Below are positions 18,899-40,687 of a stretch of DNA of 40,687 bases, piece after piece (the stretch's first letter is position 1; the number at the start of each line of letters is the position of its first letter). The DNA is from a virus (lineage: Duplodnaviria > Caudoviricetes). The translations under genes were made by a program, and so were the position numbers. The notes beneath the pieces are model-generated. The model was not told the DNA's origin, searched no databases, and worked only from the letters and a program-made list of their open reading frames with translations. The stretch spans positions 1 through 40,687 of the IMG/VR virus record IMGVR_UViG_3300026737_000004; one strand, written 5' to 3'.

Positions 18899-19210
18899 AT
18901 GAGAGGTTTTTCAAAAGTGCTTAATTCAAGACAGGATTATGAAAATGTGATTAATGACTTTGGCTACACACCAAAAGTAAAAAGAGCATACCAGGGGCTG
19001 CTAAATACAGCCAAAAAGTATGAGTTCGACAAAGAACTTGCAGCAGAATCTGATAGAACTGGCCCTGAGCCTGAGTACAAAGTTATGACTCAGGAAGAAG
19101 AGGGAGAAGAAAAGATAGTGCAGTTCAAGCTGGTAGATAATCCAAACGGAAAGATATTTAGATTAGGATTTACAGTCGATGAAGTCCAGGAGGTGATTGA
19201 CCAATGTTAA
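18899..19210 (+). CDS. Hypothetical protein upstream of the DGR target (possible fibre adaptor)
   Basis: ORF with GGAGG RBS, overlapping the start of the target gene. Confidence 0.65.
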   Translation: MRGFSKVLNSRQDYENVINDFGYTPKVKRAYQGLLNTAKKYEFDKELAAESDRTGPEPEYKVMTQEEEGEEKIVQFKLVDNPNGKIFRLGFTVDEVQEVIDQC

Positions 19211-20241
19211 GTTTCGTAGGAGCTGATTCACCTTCATTCTACAATTTCAAAGGACATATAGAAAAAAGCGCTGCTGATGAAATTACAGTACCGCCTCTGG
19301 CCCTGAGGATTGACAGACAAAATCTTAAAAAAGAAACTGATACTATTCTGACAGCCGCTGACAATGATGGGAGCTTTGCAAGTTTCACTCTTGGTGAAAA
19401 CTATTATATATATGCGCTGCAACCATCAGCTGATGCTGAGCCCGATTTTGTTATTTCAATCAATTCTACTTACCCGGATGGTTATACTGAAAACAATTCA
19501 AGAAAAATTGGAGGTTTTCACTACGGGCGTATTAGAACCACTGCTCAAAGATATGATGATACTGCTTCAATTGCGGTTAATATACTACCTAATTCAGTAT
19601 GGTCTCTTAATTATCGACCGGCTTGCGATCCAACCGGAATGGTCAAAGTATCTAACTTCTGGGCTGACATATACCTTGCCAGTGAAGGGAGTGGGACTTG
19701 GCCAGAAACTGAACTTGTCAGTGAATACAATGCAACTCCAGTGTCAGGAACTGAAGGTTATAACGATTATGATTTTATTAGAGGTCTTGCTAATGTTGGA
19801 AAAAGCAAATTGACCAGGCAAGAATGGTTGATGGCTGCTTACGGTAGCCCGGAAGGTCATGAAAATGACAATAATGCTGCATGGTCTAGCTCAAGCAACT
19901 CAGGCAGAACCGCAACTGGAACTGTAGAACAAGCAGTTTCTTGTTATAACCTAGTCGATTGTGCTGGTAACCTTTGGGAAAGGCTAGATGAGTATACTTA
20001 TAGATATACTGGAACTACATCATTTAATTGGTTTGATGTTTTAAACGCGGGGAAAGACTCTTCGCATCAACACGGAGAAGCCTATATACAAGGAAATCCT
20101 TCTATTATTGGGGTCCTCGCCGGTGGCCACTTCAACCATGGTAGCATCTGCGGTGCTCGGACGGTCCACTCGAACAATAGCCCGTGGTACGTGTACACTA
20201 GCATTGGCGTGCGTGGCGCCTGTGCTCATCAGAGTGCCTGA
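19204..20241 (+). CDS. mtd: DGR target: Mtd-like receptor-binding tail protein, C-type lectin (FGE-like) fold, VR at C-terminus
   Basis: IGGFHYG, PNSVWSL.YRP.CDP.GMV...FWADIYL, DCAGNLWE, C-terminal LAGG.F...CGAR......PW....IGVRGAC; contains VR. Confidence 0.88.
   Translation: MLSFVGADSPSFYNFKGHIEKSAADEITVPPLALRIDRQNLKKETDTILTAADNDGSFASFTLGENYYIYALQPSADAEPDFVISINSTYPDGYTENNSRKIGGFHYGRIRTTAQRYDDTASIAVNILPNSVWSLNYRPACDPTGMVKVSNFWADIYLASEGSGTWPETELVSEYNATPVSGTEGYNDYDFIRGLANVGKSKLTRQEWLMAAYGSPEGHENDNNAAWSSSSNSGRTATGTVEQAVSCYNLVDCAGNLWERLDEYTYRYTGTTSFNWFDVLNAGKDSSHQHGEAYIQGNPSIIGVLAGGHFNHGSICGARTVHSNNSPWYVYTSIGVRGACAHQSA
20112..20230 (+). repeat. DGR variable repeat (VR), 119 bp, ending in a GC-rich IMH-like tract
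   Basis: 112/119 identical to TR; mismatches at 20128, 20137, 20167, 20180, 20188, 20194 and 20201, all opposite TR adenines. Confidence 0.97.
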
Positions 20242-20291
20242 TAATCTGAAAATGGTTTTTGGTTAGTTTTTGAACTTGAAGGAGTGGTGAT

Positions 20292-20645
20292 TTGGCAGAC
20301 ACAGATGATCTAGTGATATTCAGAAAACATTATGACTTTACTCTTTATTTCTATCCAGTAATAGACAACTTTCCAAAAAGAGAAAAATTTGCGATGTGCA
20401 CCAAATTGAAAAATAAACTCTATAGAATTATGGATTTGATAATAGACGCAAATGAAACTCAAGGAAGCAAAATAAGGTTTTTAGACAGGATAGATGATGA
20501 GTTAAAAAAGCTAAAAGTTCAGATAAGGCTTGCTAAAGACATGCATTATTTATCAATAAGGAAACATAAAATTGTAGTAAAAAAATTAGACGAAATTGGC
20601 CGTCTTCTGGGCGGCTGGATTAAGTCTTGTAAAAATAAAAAATAA
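20292..20645 (+). CDS. avd: DGR accessory variability determinant (four-helix bundle)
   Basis: FPKREKFAM and LDEIGRLLGGWIK motifs; basic 117 aa; lies between VR and TR. Confidence 0.92.
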   Translation: MADTDDLVIFRKHYDFTLYFYPVIDNFPKREKFAMCTKLKNKLYRIMDLIIDANETQGSKIRFLDRIDDELKKLKVQIRLAKDMHYLSIRKHKIVVKKLDEIGRLLGGWIKSCKNKK

Positions 20646-20667
20646 ATTTTACAGGGCTAAGGGCGTT

Positions 20668-20786
20668 GGTCCTCGCCGGTGGCAACTTCAACAATGGTAG
20701 CATCTGCGGTGCTCGGACGGTCAACTCGAACAATAACCCGTGGAACGTGAACACTAACATTGGCGTGCGTGGCGCCTGTGCTCATC
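20668..20786 (+). ncRNA. DGR template repeat (TR), 119 bp
   Basis: Copy of VR with 10 AAY codons; 26 adenines, none at third codon positions. Confidence 0.96.
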
Positions 20787-21000
20787 TAAAAATTTATCAG
20801 ACAGTATGGGGTCAAGGCCTCTGCTGCAGTGTTCAAAAAGATGAACAGGCCTTTAGTCCTTCCTGAGATACATTTTGTCCCTCCAGGAAAAAATATAAAT
20901 CACTAATTAGATAGCAAGTAGCGAAATATCGAAAGCTGTCACGATTAGTTATGAGCTCGCTCTCATTTGAGCGGGCTTGAATATTTCACCCAAATATAGA
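20787..21000 (+). ncRNA. Structured DGR spacer RNA between TR and RT
   Basis: Stems AAGGCC/GGCCTT with TGTTCA/TGAACA (20814-20853), TTCCTG/CAGGAA (20860-20889), GATAGC/GCTGTC (20910-20940), AGCTCGCTC/GAGCGGGCT (20954-20977). Confidence 0.7.
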
Positions 21001-21017
21001 GAAAGTGGTGATTATTT

Positions 21018-22130
21018 ATTCCTAAGACAGTCAAAAATTTGTTTGAGAAGATAACTGATTATCATAACTTGGAAATAGCAACTCAAAATGCTCAAAAGAG
21101 AAAAAGATATAAACCAGAAGTGTTAAAGTTTAATTACAATTTAGAGAGAAATCTTATTGAGATACAAAATGAATTGATGTGGAAAACATATGAACAGGGA
21201 AAATACAGACAGTTTTATGTTTATGAGCCGAAAAAGAGACTGATTATGGCCTTGCCTTTTCGTGACAGAGTGGTCCAGTGGAGCATATATCAAAACCTTT
21301 ACCCGATATTTGATAAGACATTTTATAGATATAGCGGCGCTTGTCGCAAAGGAAAAGGAACTCATTTTACTGCATATCAGCTGCAGGACAAGTTAAGAAT
21401 AATGGACCGCAAGCCAGGGAAAACATATTTTTTAAAAGCTGACGTATCAAAATATTTTTATCGGATAGTTCATAAAAGATTATTTCAACTAATCAAAAGG
21501 AAAATCAGCTGCAGAGATACATTAGAATTAATCTGGCAGATAATCAAAAGTGAAGATGGTGAATTTGGCATCCAGTTAGGGGATCACTTCTTTGAAAATG
21601 AAAAAATCAAAGGAATTGGCACACCAATTGGTAACCTAATGAGTCAGCTTTTTGCAAATATTTATCTTGATTTTCTAGATAAGTTTGTAAAACACACTCT
21701 AAAAGTTAAATACTATGTTCGTTATATGGATGACTTTGTAATTTTAGGAAAAGACAAAAATAAACTTCATACTATTAGACAGGAAATAGAGATTTTTCTT
21801 GCTGATTATCTCCAGCTGCAGCTTAACAATAAAACTACCGTCGGCCATGTAGATGAAGGGATAGATTTTTGCGGATATGTTTTATATCCGAGTTATAGTA
21901 AATTGAGAAAATCAACTAAAAAGAAAATGAAAAAACGATTTAAGTATCTTAACAAAAAATATTTTGAAGGGAAGGTGGATATCGAGGATATTAATGCCAG
22001 TGTTAATTCCTATCTGGGAATTATTAAACACTGCGATAGCTATAATTTAAAAATGTCAGTGATAAGTAAATTAGATGATCATATACTGGAACAACTTGAT
22101 TTAGGCGACCGGTTAAAATTAAAAAGTTGA
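21018..22130 (+). CDS. brt: DGR reverse transcriptase (start ATT 21018 or TTG 21039)
   Basis: EPKKRLI.ALPFRDRVVQ, CRKGKGTH, ADVSKYF, DGR-type PIGNLMSQLFAN, YVRYMDD, GIDFCGY. Confidence 0.96.
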   Translation: MPKTVKNLFEKITDYHNLEIATQNAQKRKRYKPEVLKFNYNLERNLIEIQNELMWKTYEQGKYRQFYVYEPKKRLIMALPFRDRVVQWSIYQNLYPIFDKTFYRYSGACRKGKGTHFTAYQLQDKLRIMDRKPGKTYFLKADVSKYFYRIVHKRLFQLIKRKISCRDTLELIWQIIKSEDGEFGIQLGDHFFENEKIKGIGTPIGNLMSQLFANIYLDFLDKFVKHTLKVKYYVRYMDDFVILGKDKNKLHTIRQEIEIFLADYLQLQLNNKTTVGHVDEGIDFCGYVLYPSYSKLRKSTKKKMKKRFKYLNKKYFEGKVDIEDINASVNSYLGIIKHCDSYNLKMSVISKLDDHILEQLDLGDRLKLKS

Positions 22131-22190
22131 TGTGATACACAGATAAACAAAAACTTTTGCCTTGTAGCGGGGCTGTTTTGAGGTGATTTG

Positions 22191-22565
22191 ATGGAAAGCA
22201 AAGGGCACAGTATTGATGATTGCCCCTTAAGAGAAAAAATAGAAGATAATCATGATAGATCAAAAGATAACGAAAGAAAAATTAAAGAGCTGATGTCAGG
22301 AGACTGGTACTCAAACAAAGAGCTATACAAAATGATACAAAGCTTAACTTCTCAGCTGACTGAGTTCAATGGAAAATTTGACAAATATAATGGACTAATT
22401 GAAGAAAGAAAAAAAGACAGGAAATTACTTAATCAACTTAATGAAAAAGTAAATAAAATAGATACTAAAGGAAAAACAAAAAAGGAAATTACTACGAATT
22501 GGAGAGAATGGATTGGCTGGGTAATTGCAATTTTATTAGCATTATCAAAACTGGGGGTTTTTTAA
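22191..22565 (+). CDS. Coiled-coil protein with C-terminal TM; holin-like/lysis accessory
   Basis: First gene of the lysis cassette; single C-terminal hydrophobic helix WIGWVIAILLALSKLGVF. Confidence 0.55.
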   Translation: MESKGHSIDDCPLREKIEDNHDRSKDNERKIKELMSGDWYSNKELYKMIQSLTSQLTEFNGKFDKYNGLIEERKKDRKLLNQLNEKVNKIDTKGKTKKEITTNWREWIGWVIAILLALSKLGVF

Positions 22566-22566
22566 A

Positions 22567-23085
22567 ATGGATAATATTTTTAAAAAAGCTTTTGAAGAAG
22601 TAATGGAAATTGAAGGTGGCTATGTTAACCACAAAGATGATCCTGGTGGTGCCACTAATTTTGGCATCACAGAAGCAGTAGCAAGAAGAAATGGCTATGA
22701 AGGAGATATGAGAGACTTAAAACTGCACCAGGCCAGAGACATCTATTATTATGAATTTTGGCTTGACCAGAAATATAACAAAATTAAAAACAGAGATGTA
22801 GCAATTGAAATGTTTGATCAGGCAGTAAACATGGGACCTGGCCGAGCTAATAGAAATTTACAAAAATCTTATAATTTACTTTCTGATAATCAAATTTCAG
22901 TTGATGGAGCAATCGGCCCTAATACTTTAAAAGCTGTTAATAGCTGTAATAAGCCGGTGGGATTGTTTAATCTACTTAATGGCTATCAAATTATGCATTA
23001 CATTAACCTTGCTGAAAACAGCCAAAAATATAGGTCATTTATTCGTGGCTGGGTTAATAAAAGAATAGAAATTATAAGGAAGTGA
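22567..23085 (+). CDS. Endolysin, glycoside hydrolase family 108 with C-terminal PG-binding domain
   Basis: EGGYVNHKDDPGGATNFGIT motif; FD.AVN.G; VDGAIGPNT; FIRGW.NKR. Confidence 0.92.
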   Translation: MDNIFKKAFEEVMEIEGGYVNHKDDPGGATNFGITEAVARRNGYEGDMRDLKLHQARDIYYYEFWLDQKYNKIKNRDVAIEMFDQAVNMGPGRANRNLQKSYNLLSDNQISVDGAIGPNTLKAVNSCNKPVGLFNLLNGYQIMHYINLAENSQKYRSFIRGWVNKRIEIIRK

Positions 23086-23090
23086 CTACT

Positions 23091-23330
23091 ATGGAAGAAC
23101 AAAAAGTAAATGAAGTTAATCTAAAAGAAGACTCTAATAATAACAATATTCCTGACTGGGCAGAGTTTACAGCTACATATCTAATTGCAGCTGTTTGCGT
23201 TAGTATGGCTGTAGCTGGTTACATCAGGCAGGATTTAGACGGTTCAATTATTAAATGGTTGTTAGGTTTTGGTGTCGTTCTGACTGGCGGCCGTGATGCT
23301 ATCAAAGCTTTCATTAAAAGAAAGGTGTAA
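23091..23330 (+). CDS. Putative holin (two TM segments, basic C-terminus)
   Basis: Two hydrophobic helices, KRKV tail, adjacent to endolysin; start GTG 23082 or ATG 23091. Confidence 0.6.
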   Translation: MEEQKVNEVNLKEDSNNNNIPDWAEFTATYLIAAVCVSMAVAGYIRQDLDGSIIKWLLGFGVVLTGGRDAIKAFIKRKV

Positions 23331-23334
23331 TAAA

Positions 23335-23775
23335 ATGTACCTAATAAAATACTTGCTTTATATCTTAGAGCACAAATGTAATGTTTTTAAAATCTCAATT
23401 AAAAAAGGATATTATTTGCATGCTTTAACTCATGATTTAAGTAAGTTTAGCGGCAGTGAATTCTTGGCGTATGCTGGTTATTTCTACAAAGATAAGGCAA
23501 AATATAAACATCGCTTTGAAATGGCTTGGAGACATCATTATTACAACAATCCACATCATTGGCAGCATTGGCTGGATACAGATGGGAATCCAATAGAAAT
23601 TCCAGATAAATACATTGAACAAATGATAATTGACTGGGAGGCTATGGGTATCAAATTTAATGACACTGCAAAAGAATATTATTTAAAAAATAAAAATAAA
23701 ATAAAATTAACTCCGCATACAAGAACTAATCTAGAAATAAAATTAAAAGTGGGTGGTCAAAATGCTAAAAACTAA
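23335..23775 (+). CDS. HD-like metal-dependent hydrolase (DUF5662-like); start ATG 23335
   Basis: HK...HDLSKFS..EF..Y...AWRHHY..NPHHWQHW...MIIDW pattern. Confidence 0.7.
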   Translation: MYLIKYLLYILEHKCNVFKISIKKGYYLHALTHDLSKFSGSEFLAYAGYFYKDKAKYKHRFEMAWRHHYYNNPHHWQHWLDTDGNPIEIPDKYIEQMIIDWEAMGIKFNDTAKEYYLKNKNKIKLTPHTRTNLEIKLKVGGQNAKN

Positions 23776-24118
23776 GCATAAAATCATATTAATTGTTATT
23801 GCTGCACTGTTAGTTATTGGTGCTCTATTTTTTGGAGGTTGGAAGCTGGCTTCTCTTTTAGGTATCGGAGCTGCAGCTGGTGGGTACAAAGCTGCAAGCA
23901 AACAGGTCCAGAAGCAAGCTGATCAGGAAAAAGAAGTAGTTAATGAAGTAGAAAAGGATATCGATAATAGAAAAGAGAAAGACCAGGAGCTGCAGAAAAA
24001 GTCAGAAAATCGCAAAGAAAAAGCTGAGAAACTTAATAATAATCAAAAAAACAGGCAGAAAAGAGCTGAAAGTTTAGAGGATAGGCTTAATAACCACACA
24101 GAAGGTGATAACAATTAA
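23762..24118 (+). CDS. Membrane-anchored coiled-coil protein (i-spanin-like)
   Basis: Basic N-terminus, hydrophobic segment(s), ~70 aa charged coiled coil; in the lysis cassette. Confidence 0.55.
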   Translation: MLKTKHKIILIVIAALLVIGALFFGGWKLASLLGIGAAAGGYKAASKQVQKQADQEKEVVNEVEKDIDNRKEKDQELQKKSENRKEKAEKLNNNQKNRQKRAESLEDRLNNHTEGDNN

Positions 24119-24545
24119 ACGTCTACTTGTATTTTTAATAGTTTTATCTTTGCTTTTTGTGCCGATTGTTGTCAATGCTCAGGAGTTAGATCCTCCGAAA
24201 GAATATGATCAACTCCTGAAAGATTATCGTGATATGTATGACATTGCCCAGAAATATAAGCAGCTTTATGAAGAAGCTGAGCGGGATGTTACCGAATATA
24301 AAAAGTTATACAACCAGGCAGAAGCAGATGTTGAGGAATACAGGCAATTATATAAATCAGCTGAGGAGAACAATCGAAAATTAATAGACTCTAATAATAG
24401 GTTGCAGGATTTGATTGATACTCAAAAGCAAATGATAGACGATATATTAAATAAAAAGAACATTGGAATAATAACAGGGGTCAATGTGGTCCCTGCTGAC
24501 ATAAAAAATAGTGGAGTAATACTCGGGTTTGATTTTAGGTTCTAA
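24105..24545 (+). CDS. Secreted coiled-coil protein with C-terminal beta-strands ending in Phe (o-spanin analogue?)
   Basis: SPase I-like signal ...VVNA/QE, no Cys, three 14-aa repeats (YKQLYEEAERDVTE-type), ends GVILGFDFRF. Confidence 0.55.
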   Translation: MITIKRLLVFLIVLSLLFVPIVVNAQELDPPKEYDQLLKDYRDMYDIAQKYKQLYEEAERDVTEYKKLYNQAEADVEEYRQLYKSAEENNRKLIDSNNRLQDLIDTQKQMIDDILNKKNIGIITGVNVVPADIKNSGVILGFDFRF

Positions 24546-24584: not shown

Positions 24585-24814
24585 AAATCCTGCACAAATC
24601 CTGCACCCAACCGGTTAATATATGTTAATATAATAAATTTGGAAAGAAAATAAAAACCCTATAATCGCCGTTATAACGAAGATTAGTTAATAATCGTTAA
24701 TAATAGTAATTTGTACTCGCATAACATGGGATTATCCGCATAAAAACAATAAAATCTTAATATAACAGGGATTATAAAGGATAGTCAGTGCAAAATCCTG
24801 CACTAATCCTGCAC
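24585..24814. other. attP region: four arm-type repeats AATCCTGCAC around a candidate core at 24718-24738
   Basis: Repeats at 24585-24595, 24596-24606, 24793-24803 and 24804-24814; core CGCATAA-CATGGGA-TTATCCG; next to the integrase 3' end. Confidence 0.75.
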
Positions 24815-25975
24815 TGAGAAAACGGACCCTACAGCTTTTGAAATATCATTTCTTGCTCTTTCAAAATCTTTCTTTAGAAAATGGCTGTAAGTATCAGCAG
24901 TAATTACGTAAGAAGAGTGGCCTAATAATTTTTGCAGCTCCTTAATATTTTTGTTTTCAGCCAAAAATAGAGATGCAAAAGTGTGTCGGAATATATGAGA
25001 TGTGATCCAGTCAGGGAAGCCTCCAGCTTCTCTGGCTTTTCTGATTTTATTCTGTACAGTTCTAGGAGCATAATGTTCTCCATCATCTTTGCATAATATT
25101 AAATTATGGTCCTTATATTCATCGCCTAAGTGCATTTTCATTTCCTGCTGCCTTTTCCAAATACCCCGATAAAAGTTAGCCAGGCTGTCCGATATTGGTA
25201 TATTTCTAAACCTATCAGCTGCTTTCGGAGTTTCCTTAAATACAGTCCCCCTGCCAGTAACATAGACAGCAACCTGTTCAACGGTTATAATCCCCTTGCT
25301 AAAGTTTAAATCCTTCCACCTGGAGCCTATCATTTCTTCAAGACACATTCCAGTATTAATAGCAATGTAACAATAATCAAATAAATACTGATCATAATCC
25401 TGAACAAACTCCAGCCATTTTTTCAACATGTCTCTATTAATTGCTTTAACTTTTTTCTTTTTCTTTGTAACTTTTCGTTGAGTTTTGCCACCAGGCTTTC
25501 TAACATTCTGCATTGGGTTCTGATAAATATAATTCATTTCATCAGCATAAGTTAGAGCAGAAGAGATGATCGCATAATGATATTGCTGAGTTTTAGTGCT
25601 TCCGCCACGCTTACGAATAGAAGTAAGATAAGACTGAATGTGAGCAGGCTGAATCTCTTTAAGCTTCAACCTGCCTAGCACCTTCAAAACTTGATGATAG
25701 AATACATTATAGTAGCGATCGTGAGTAACTGGAGACAACTGCTCATCTACATACTCATCAAACCACTTGTCGACATACTGCTTAAAAGTCATGTTAGCAA
25801 ATTCCATAAGGATGCCAGTCTCTTTTTCTAATTCTTTATCTCTTGCCCACCTTTGGGCTTCTTTTTTTGTATCGAAAGTGGCGCTCTCCCTAATTTGTTT
25901 GCCGTCAGAATCCCGGCCCATATAAACAAATACTTCCCAGTTGCCAGCTTTAGTCTTTCTGGGGTCGCTTGCCAT
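24803..25975 (-). CDS. int: Tyrosine recombinase/phage integrase
   Basis: N-terminal arm-binding domain, SAM-like domain, HIFRHTFAS, LLGHSS...T.DTYSH; the box I Arg position reads TGMC rather than TGMR. Confidence 0.92.
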   Translation of the reverse strand: MASDPRKTKAGNWEVFVYMGRDSDGKQIRESATFDTKKEAQRWARDKELEKETGILMEFANMTFKQYVDKWFDEYVDEQLSPVTHDRYYNVFYHQVLKVLGRLKLKEIQPAHIQSYLTSIRKRGGSTKTQQYHYAIISSALTYADEMNYIYQNPMQNVRKPGGKTQRKVTKKKKKVKAINRDMLKKWLEFVQDYDQYLFDYCYIAINTGMCLEEMIGSRWKDLNFSKGIITVEQVAVYVTGRGTVFKETPKAADRFRNIPISDSLANFYRGIWKRQQEMKMHLGDEYKDHNLILCKDDGEHYAPRTVQNKIRKAREAGGFPDWITSHIFRHTFASLFLAENKNIKELQKLLGHSSYVITADTYSHFLKKDFERARNDISKAVGSVFSVQD

Positions 25976-40519: not shown

Positions 40520-40546
40520 AATCCCTGTAATCTGATGAATTTCTGT

Positions 40547-40556
40547 CGCGGCGTCA
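40547..40556 (+). other. Candidate cos (3' cohesive end) site, about CGCGGCGTC(A)
   Basis: GC-rich patch between HNH and terS; the fold-back at contig start pivots at 40547. Confidence 0.55.
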
Positions 40557-40561
40557 GCTTA

Positions 40562-40687
40562 GCGTATACAAAATCCCCTTTTCAACATATCCCTTTTAAA
40601 TAAGTTGGAGGTGAAAAAATGTCCAGAAACGCAAAACCTATTTCGCTTAGCGTAATAGAGGGCGGTAAAAAACCGCACCGCAGTAAT
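40562..40687 (+). repeat. Terminal direct repeat copy (includes duplicated terS start at 40619)
   Basis: Identical to 25-150. Confidence 0.95.

Follow-up and report, generated by a model that had tools for sequence, protein, structure and literature searches.

The 3′ end of the late operon of this phage carries, in order, an XhlA-like gene, a GH108 endolysin gene, a holin candidate, a DUF5662 gene and two overlapping genes referred to here as gene 1 and gene 2. All lie on the + strand of the window, which is the whole 40.7 kb virus record (40,687 nucleotides). The first is a candidate XhlA/hemolysin-like lysis accessory gene (22188..22565), whose product has a coiled coil, a hydrophobic C-terminal end and a weak match to phrog_937 (E 0.03). 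The endolysin (22567..23085) contains Glyco_hydro_108 and PG_binding_3, and the holin candidate (23091..23330), a small two-helix membrane protein without a family match, is assigned from its shape and position. The DUF5662 gene (23335..23775) is situated between the holin candidate and the gene pair. Genes 1 and 2 are the final + strand genes ahead of a convergent integrase gene (24803-25975). The ends of the record, 1-150 and 40538-40687, are an imperfect repeat of each other (133/150 identical), so the record is probably a circular genome whose ends overlap.

Gene 2 copies with 92-93% identity are found in prophages of the named genomes of Halanaerobium saccharolyticum and H. salsuginis, and the host is therefore very likely Halanaerobium. 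The Halanaerobiales are described in the available excerpt of PMC5007114 as Firmicutes with an LPS outer membrane.

Two further features border the lysis genes. DUF5662 recurs within such a lysis cassette in distant phages (the window, L015 and L045) and is missing at the corresponding place in L007 and L067. Immediately upstream of the cassette is a diversity-generating retroelement (19204-22130, + strand), made up of an Mtd-like target, bAvd, a template-like repeat near 20657-20800 which matches the end of the Mtd-like target, and a reverse transcriptase. A reverse transcriptase upstream of the cassette is also present in L007, L015, L066, L067 and L069.

Gene 1 (23762..24118) encodes the predicted inner-membrane subunit, a protein of 118 aa. 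A hydrophobic block, H1 (residues 8-41; 23783-23884), is followed by a charged coiled coil, CC1, which continues to the C-terminus. An N-terminal anchor with a downstream coiled coil is the build of an i-spanin. The charges flanking H1 resemble those of the i-spanins lambda Rz, P2 LysB and Mu gp23, all of which are N-in/C-out. As a test of topology this flanking charge was set aside as uninformative, the known i-spanins looking alike. The H1 of the window spans 34 residues, has a Lys at its centre and might form a re-entrant hairpin, in which case CC1 would stay in the cytoplasm. Gene 1 matches Rz-like PHROGs (E 3e-5 to 6e-3, and down to 1e-7 for its relatives), but the ‘Rz-like spanin’ matches are unspecific, since phrog_739 also matches 8/14 control genomes, monoderms included. 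PF28006 is found as a precomputed annotation on gene 1 homologues. Neither the gene 1 nor the gene 2 protein contains a Cys residue.

Gene 2 (24114..24545) encodes the predicted outer-membrane subunit, with 143 aa when read from an ATT codon and 146 aa when read from a GTG at 24105. The latter is the start chosen by ORF callers. It is contained in a Shine-Dalgarno-type motif, GAAGGTGA (24101..24108, + strand), located 5 nt upstream of the ATT; among 13 GGTGA+ATG starts within the window, the spacing is 4-8 nt. The GTG is changed to GCG in 2/13 close loci (L009 and L014), and in L069 and L070 an ATG occupies the position of gene 2 codon 4. An ATT is found at codon 4, behind a similar motif, in L007, L008, L015, L066 and L067. 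Because the GTG falls inside the motif, is lost in the two close loci and is matched by an ATG in L069 and L070, translation probably begins at ATT 24114, so that the two genes overlap by 5 nt. As a start codon ATT is rare and weak, which suggests a low output of gene 2. A programmed frameshift joining the two genes of the window was considered and rejected, the frame offset being +1 in 10/13 and -1 in 3/13 close loci.

The predicted signal peptide of gene 2 (24114..24179) is of the SPase I type, with a basic n-region, a hydrophobic core and V-N-A before a Gln, and contains no Cys. A coiled coil, CC2 (24201..24458), follows and corresponds to AF2 helix 34-117. Within it lie three 14-aa repeats (residues 51-92 in the 146-aa numbering; 24255..24380) with 20/42 pairwise identities, a value reached by 0/10,000 plain and 0/10,000 heptad-preserving shuffles. 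The number of repeats varies among relatives, P0036 having one fewer, so they look like a length extension. The C-terminal region consists of two amphipathic predicted beta-strands (residues 120-128 and 136-146; 24462..24542), closing on a beta-signal end with Gly at -6 and Phe at -1. This architecture, from the overlapping genes and the anchored coiled coil to the signal without Cys, the repeats and the two strands, had been claimed in the original prediction and is confirmed, the overlap being 5 nt when counted from ATT 24114. Gene 2 is under purifying selection (dN/dS about 0.08). Tests for kinship to known spanin families gave no match for gene 2 at 1e-3. In the ESM Atlas the nearest clusters are unnamed viral proteins (0.95-0.90), with DUF6808 at 0.88 as a lead only.

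The C-terminal pattern extends across the family. Of 55 members, 46 end in an aromatic residue, 50 have a hydrophobic residue at -3 and 37 have Gly at -6, a combination that corresponds to the beta-signal. Patterns of a cleavable Sec signal and of a C-terminal beta-signal are thus both present, as would be expected of a BAM-inserted beta-barrel protein; for gene 2 these two readings draw on sequence pattern and family conservation. A lipobox-like 4-mer is found in 1/55 members, located inside the internal hydrophobic segment of a fused protein. A regex scan found no lipobox in any frame of the 40.7-kb window, using a pattern that caught 3/4 control o-spanins (lambda, T7 and Mu; P2 was missed). 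With no Cys in gene 2 and no lipobox in any frame of the window, the pair includes no lipoprotein and therefore falls outside the o-spanins.

The lipid-free beta-strand anchor first proposed for gene 2 is partly borne out. It is favoured by the family-wide beta-signal and by the C-terminal hairpin in the AF2 model of a relative, P0048, whereas the hairpin in the AF2 model of the window's own gene 2 has a pLDDT <50. A closed barrel would in this case have to be oligomeric. Prediction of a complex of four copies of mature gene 2 gave 0.34 against a mark of 0.42 (runs 0.35, 0.09 and 0.34), a result that counts neither for nor against such an oligomer. The low confidence of the window's hairpin, together with the lack of any sequence or fold match to a solved barrel, would suit a protein whose C-terminal strands are a soluble oligomerisation knob or a membrane-active tip, with no membrane barrel, and which acts like a secreted disruptor. 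Such a protein is highly improbable here, given the strict alternation, the Gly at -6 and the terminal aromatic residue across the 55 members, and the co-occurrence with Omp85 described below.

A family profile built from 19 close homologues was searched against 1.84 billion representatives and returned 50 proteins, of which 34 are single fused ORFs of 169-292 aa. The order within these ORFs is H1, CC1, H2 (an internal signal peptide), CC2 and two strands predicted to form a beta-hairpin. Most of the distant relatives consist of one fused ORF. The N-terminal part of the fused profile detects gene 1 in split loci; gene 1 is homologous to its N-terminal 76 positions, with E 5e-10 to 2e-8 per genome among close relatives. 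The split locus L086 is 64-65% identical to the fused L078 and P0053 in both halves. P0083 (1235 aa, matching the repeats alone) was left out of all alignments, and the tail of P0034 was judged by eye to be an assembly artefact. A tblastn search of 50,697 GenBank phages with two members gave no match, nor did viral scans with P0047 and P0088. In the fused members P0085 and L038 (revcomp 1462-2178), longer C-terminal tails resemble four strands, not two. A proline-rich stretch, reminiscent of the proline-rich Rz1, replaces the first half of CC1 in a fused clade comprising P0065, P0074, P0088 and P0091.

In a tree built from the C-terminal 95 residues of 63 members, the fused and unfused states require 11 changes, at least 6 of them forced by strong branches, with the proviso that 11 of the 24 unfused rows are known from the protein alone and may be truncated gene calls. 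Counting DNA-read loci alone, split forms occur in three separate supported clades. Judged from these sequences, fused and split forms interconvert repeatedly. In three larger phages gene 1 and gene 2 are separated by 1.2-2.2 kb, and gene 1 is present in 3/3. The changes between fused and split states, and the keeping of both genes where they are not adjacent, indicate that the two act as one unit.

The lengths of CC1 and CC2 co-vary. Across 32 fused proteins with <50% mutual identity the Spearman coefficient is 0.81, with P0085 left out for its longer tail, and independent contrasts give r 0.75 (21 agreeing and 7 opposing; sign-flip p 0.0003). As a control, the correlations with neighbouring linker lengths are 0.24 and 0.34. 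The link is weaker in 12 split pairs (Pearson 0.63, Spearman 0.30), among which the long L066 and the short L086 shift in both coils together. The summed coil lengths are 103-195 residues. The correlation could reflect scaling to the width of the periplasm instead of zipping of the two coils.

The AF2 model of the fused P0048 (31 rows; pLDDT 81.5, pTM 0.53) contains helices 2-88 and 108-162 and a hairpin at 167-174/184-191. Over residues about 25-167 it can be aligned with antiparallel helical hairpins, with a best Z of 9.9, below the level of about 13 which the fold tool calls meaningful for helical bundles. From this alignment CC1 would lie on CC2, and the antiparallel fold would bring H1 close to the beta-hairpin, as in a post-fusion state. 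The coil pairing in this model is weak evidence, as two connected helices are often folded together by AF2, and such Z-scores are generic. No viral structure matched the fused model in a fold search at E<=0.001, and a PDB sequence search with the family profile gave no match at the same threshold.

The fused proteins complicate the placing of CC1. In 33/33 of them, Lys and Arg amount to 6.0 before H2 and 0.9 after it per 15 residues, and H2 is followed by acidic residues; a small-x-small site usually accompanies it. H2 therefore reads as an outward-pointing internal signal that would export CC2, which would leave CC1 cytoplasmic at synthesis, the wrong side for an i-spanin. H1 and H2, pointing outward in succession, cannot both insert at once. 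A search of 10 fused loci for a conserved internal start or a -1 slippery site that could resolve the topology of CC1 found neither; a CTG with an SD-like word occurs in 3 of them and an A-run heptamer in 4, at differing places. The cutting of a polyprotein at an internal signal has a bacterial precedent in Bradyrhizobium fbcH. The original prediction of a separate gene 1 of the i-spanin type thus holds in part. Its partnership with gene 2 is backed by the fusions, and the charges of H1 match those of control i-spanins, yet the fused homologues place CC1 before an outward signal, and the simple picture of a periplasmic i-spanin does not stand unaltered.

The orientation of the H2 signal in all 33 fused proteins would also agree with a division of labour in which the hairpins of gene 2 assemble into an oligomeric pore or lesion and break the outer membrane on their own. 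Gene 1 would then be a membrane-tethered cytoplasmic coiled coil, chaperoning CC2 before export or tuning the timing of the holin. A cytoplasmic chaperone wrapping CC2 would likewise give matched coil lengths, and the rare ATT start fits a toxic product. Against this, the lumen of a barrel with two strands per subunit would be narrow, a pore needs no long periplasmic rod, and H1 resembles known i-spanin anchors. A pore with a cytoplasmic helper is accordingly considered unlikely.

A different resolution is that the fused protein is not cut, or not fully. One helix would remain in the inner membrane and the hairpin would sit in the outer membrane, with CC2 spanning the periplasm, making an inverted unimolecular spanin; split forms would keep the gene 2 signal as the anchor. 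Fused forms are the majority of the distant matches, an uncleaved H2 anchor requires no change of topology, and the A-x-A sites are weak in some fused members (L030 and L031). Small -1/-3 residues and acidic mature starts are, however, kept in most fused and split members. This arrangement also leaves unexplained both the retention of gene 1 when the genes are split or separated and the link between CC1 and CC2 lengths, and it is regarded as distinctly unlikely.

The setting of the family argues for a role in lysis. A cell-wall hydrolase lies within about 2 kb of the gene or genes in 14/16 family loci, for which selected neighbouring ORFs were scanned; the ORFs scanned in the 2/16 loci without a hydrolase are probably antisense. 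Two further family loci with a cell-wall hydrolase were found beyond the 14/16. The adjoining hydrolases belong to 7 unrelated families, namely GH108, Amidase_2, Amidase_3, Hydrolase_2, phage lysozyme, glucosaminidase and peptidase M15. As with spanin genes, the linked pair is placed in or near the lysis cassette. In one phage group, a gene for a thioredoxin bearing a signal peptide lies between the endolysin and the fused gene (L079:1871-2323, L080:698-1126, L081, L082 and L084); the exported part of the fused protein nonetheless lacks Cys.

Some copies are found away from phage genes. In five loci (L041-L044 and L048; genomes G234, G154, G382, G331 and G301), all from genomes that have both Spo0A and Omp85, the split pair faces one and the same LacI-type gene in convergent orientation. 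Two wider stretches around LacI-adjacent copies (L053 and L060) contain no phage structural genes that were seen, and one has no endolysin. Two more copies, L050 and L052, likewise have non-phage surroundings. In the LacI-adjacent chromosomal copies gene 1 has a dN/dS of 0.11-0.23 (5 loci). The LacI-adjacent pairs possibly represent a domesticated lysis module, for example for mother-cell lysis in diderm spore formers. Purifying selection on chromosomal copies outside recognisable prophages would equally fit an envelope ‘moron’, serving superinfection exclusion, receptor masking or envelope tethering, which is no lysis machine and lies behind the lysis genes by chance. That the genes are co-oriented and tightly coupled to seven endolysin families across unrelated phage types makes this very improbable, as does the absence of another spanin candidate in the window phage.

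The distribution among hosts was examined in 401 genomes from the phylum of G001 (Bacillota), 400 without the seed. Omp85 is carried by 100/401 genomes, and 15/401 match the family profile, 14 of these 15 being Omp85-positive. The remaining match, in G187, was set aside because the protein is a membrane protein built differently and the matching stretch contains 2 stops. With the seed excluded, the family is present in 13/99 Omp85-positive and 0/301 Omp85-negative genomes (Fisher p 7e-9, or 8e-8 with the false G187 match counted), in a sample whose genomes are mutually related and incomplete and for which no more than 7 candidates were scored per genome. No family match was found in 86 Omp85-positive genomes. 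Omp85 is present in 5/5 Halanaerobiia carriers and LpxC in 5/5 other carriers tested, and BamA/Omp85 is found for the host deduced through the Halanaerobium prophage copies. The expectation that homologues would be confined to diderm hosts is therefore upheld within the sample, where the family occurs solely in Omp85-bearing genomes. Within the class of G001, a full match occurs in 5/102 genomes, of which three have the split and two the fused form. One fused protein has a named source, Iocasia. One fused cluster comes from MAGs labelled Elusimicrobiota and Bacteroidales, where it is found on short contigs that may be mis-binned.

The reading preferred here, and considered moderately probable, is a spanin-like membrane-fusion system in which the outer subunit is a BAM-inserted oligomer of beta-hairpins, the two coils pair by zipping and SPase I cleaves the fused forms. 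The gene 2 protein would be exported by Sec and trimmed by signal peptidase I. Several of its hairpins would be inserted by BAM together, as a single small barrel from which the CC2 rods project into the periplasm, and the gene 1 protein would be located in the inner membrane. CC1 would pair with CC2 antiparallel and side by side, placing the inner-membrane anchor beside the barrel. Once the endolysin has removed the wall, the zipped coils would pull the membranes into fusion. In fused relatives, one polypeptide would carry both subunits and be cut at the internal signal. H2 would insert first, SPase I would free the outer subunit, and H1-CC1 would correspond, after removal of a stub, to the product of split gene 1. 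CC1 would reach the periplasm late, in a second step, or would meet CC2 via the holin lesion, or would have a mixed or second topology. In the split form, the rare ATT start may keep the outer subunit scarce.

A broader and tentative proposal, less probable than not, is that the family is a third spanin class ancestral to the phages of diderm Firmicutes. It would consist of a polyprotein cut by the host signal peptidase into an inner-membrane rod and a rod carried on a BAM-assembled beta-barrel. A deliberate topology conflict would hold the first rod in the cytoplasm until a second step or the holin lesion. Repeated splitting and re-fusion would have followed, with domestication in some diderm hosts bearing spore genes.

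The pair shares several features with the two-component spanins (lambda Rz/Rz1, P2 LysB/LysC and T4 PseT.3/PseT.2), as these are described in the available excerpts of PMC6139136. In both, coupled genes, overlapped or separated, end the lysis cassette, the first gene encodes a coiled coil anchored at its N-terminus, with flanking charges of the i-spanin kind, and the summed coil lengths could here also span the periplasm. The gene 2 product differs in having no lipobox or Cys, in carrying a signal of the SPase I type and a long coiled coil of its own, and in a predicted beta-hairpin at the C-terminus that bears a beta-signal; the N-terminus is its free end. In addition, the genes of this family are often fused with an internal signal peptide, and the pair has no Cys for disulphide-linked dimers. 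The unimolecular spanin T1 gp11 (excerpts of PMC6139136) resembles the fused members in deriving both membrane anchors from a single gene. Fused members are reversed in polarity, with the inner-membrane helix first and the outer-membrane anchor last, and have a helical rather than beta-rich periplasmic part and a probable internal cleavage site. Owing to the reversed polarity and the lack of a lipobox, they are not u-spanins of the T1 gp11 type.

In YadA-type trimeric autotransporters, a coiled coil leads into a small number of C-terminal strands that finish on an aromatic residue, and every subunit forms part of one barrel. The gene 2 product shares the coiled coil, the few C-terminal strands and the terminal aromatic residue. 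It differs in that each subunit has two strands in place of four (though P0085 and L038 may have four), in a rod predicted to be periplasmic and in its phage lysis context, and no sequence or fold match was found. A mechanistic analogy is provided by the hairpins of class I viral fusion proteins (gp41 and retroviral TM), in which two antiparallel helices bring two membrane anchors together. Class I viral fusion chains are among the top fold matches of the P0048 model, but these matches are to helical hairpins of a generic kind (Z 8-10) and do not indicate kinship. In Bacteroides phage B124-14, ORF016c (L065:6765-7370, - strand) is the gene after an M15 endolysin gene. Its product starts with a helix, continues as a coiled coil and has a C-terminal part rich in strands (DUF6549); inspection by eye showed no lipobox. 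ORF016c is a possible analogous single-gene system, in a phage listed as spanin-less in the excerpts of PMC6139136.

Kongari et al. 2018 surveyed 677 phage genomes, found no spanin in 91 of them and stated that ‘an OMP could act as an o-spanin’, treated in the available excerpts as an unexplored possibility (PMC6139136). A literature search on spanins, phage lysis and diderm Firmicutes, mostly outside subscription papers and in part through excerpts, found no such system described. The family is real, conserved and undescribed in the literature searched; the proposal of an OMP as an o-spanin predates it (PMC6139136). It offers a concrete, small and clonable candidate for replacing an o-spanin, suited to the standard lambda Rz/Rz1 complementation assay. 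If the preferred reading is true, this would be the first account, in the literature searched, of how phages pass across the outer membrane of diderm Firmicutes, and would explain how some phages without recognisable spanins escape. The combination of signal, coil and beta-signal would become a search pattern for spanin-less phages, and the hairpin would be a two-strand oligomeric substrate of BAM. If the fused form is cut as proposed, it would be a rare case of phage polyprotein processing by a bacterial signal peptidase.
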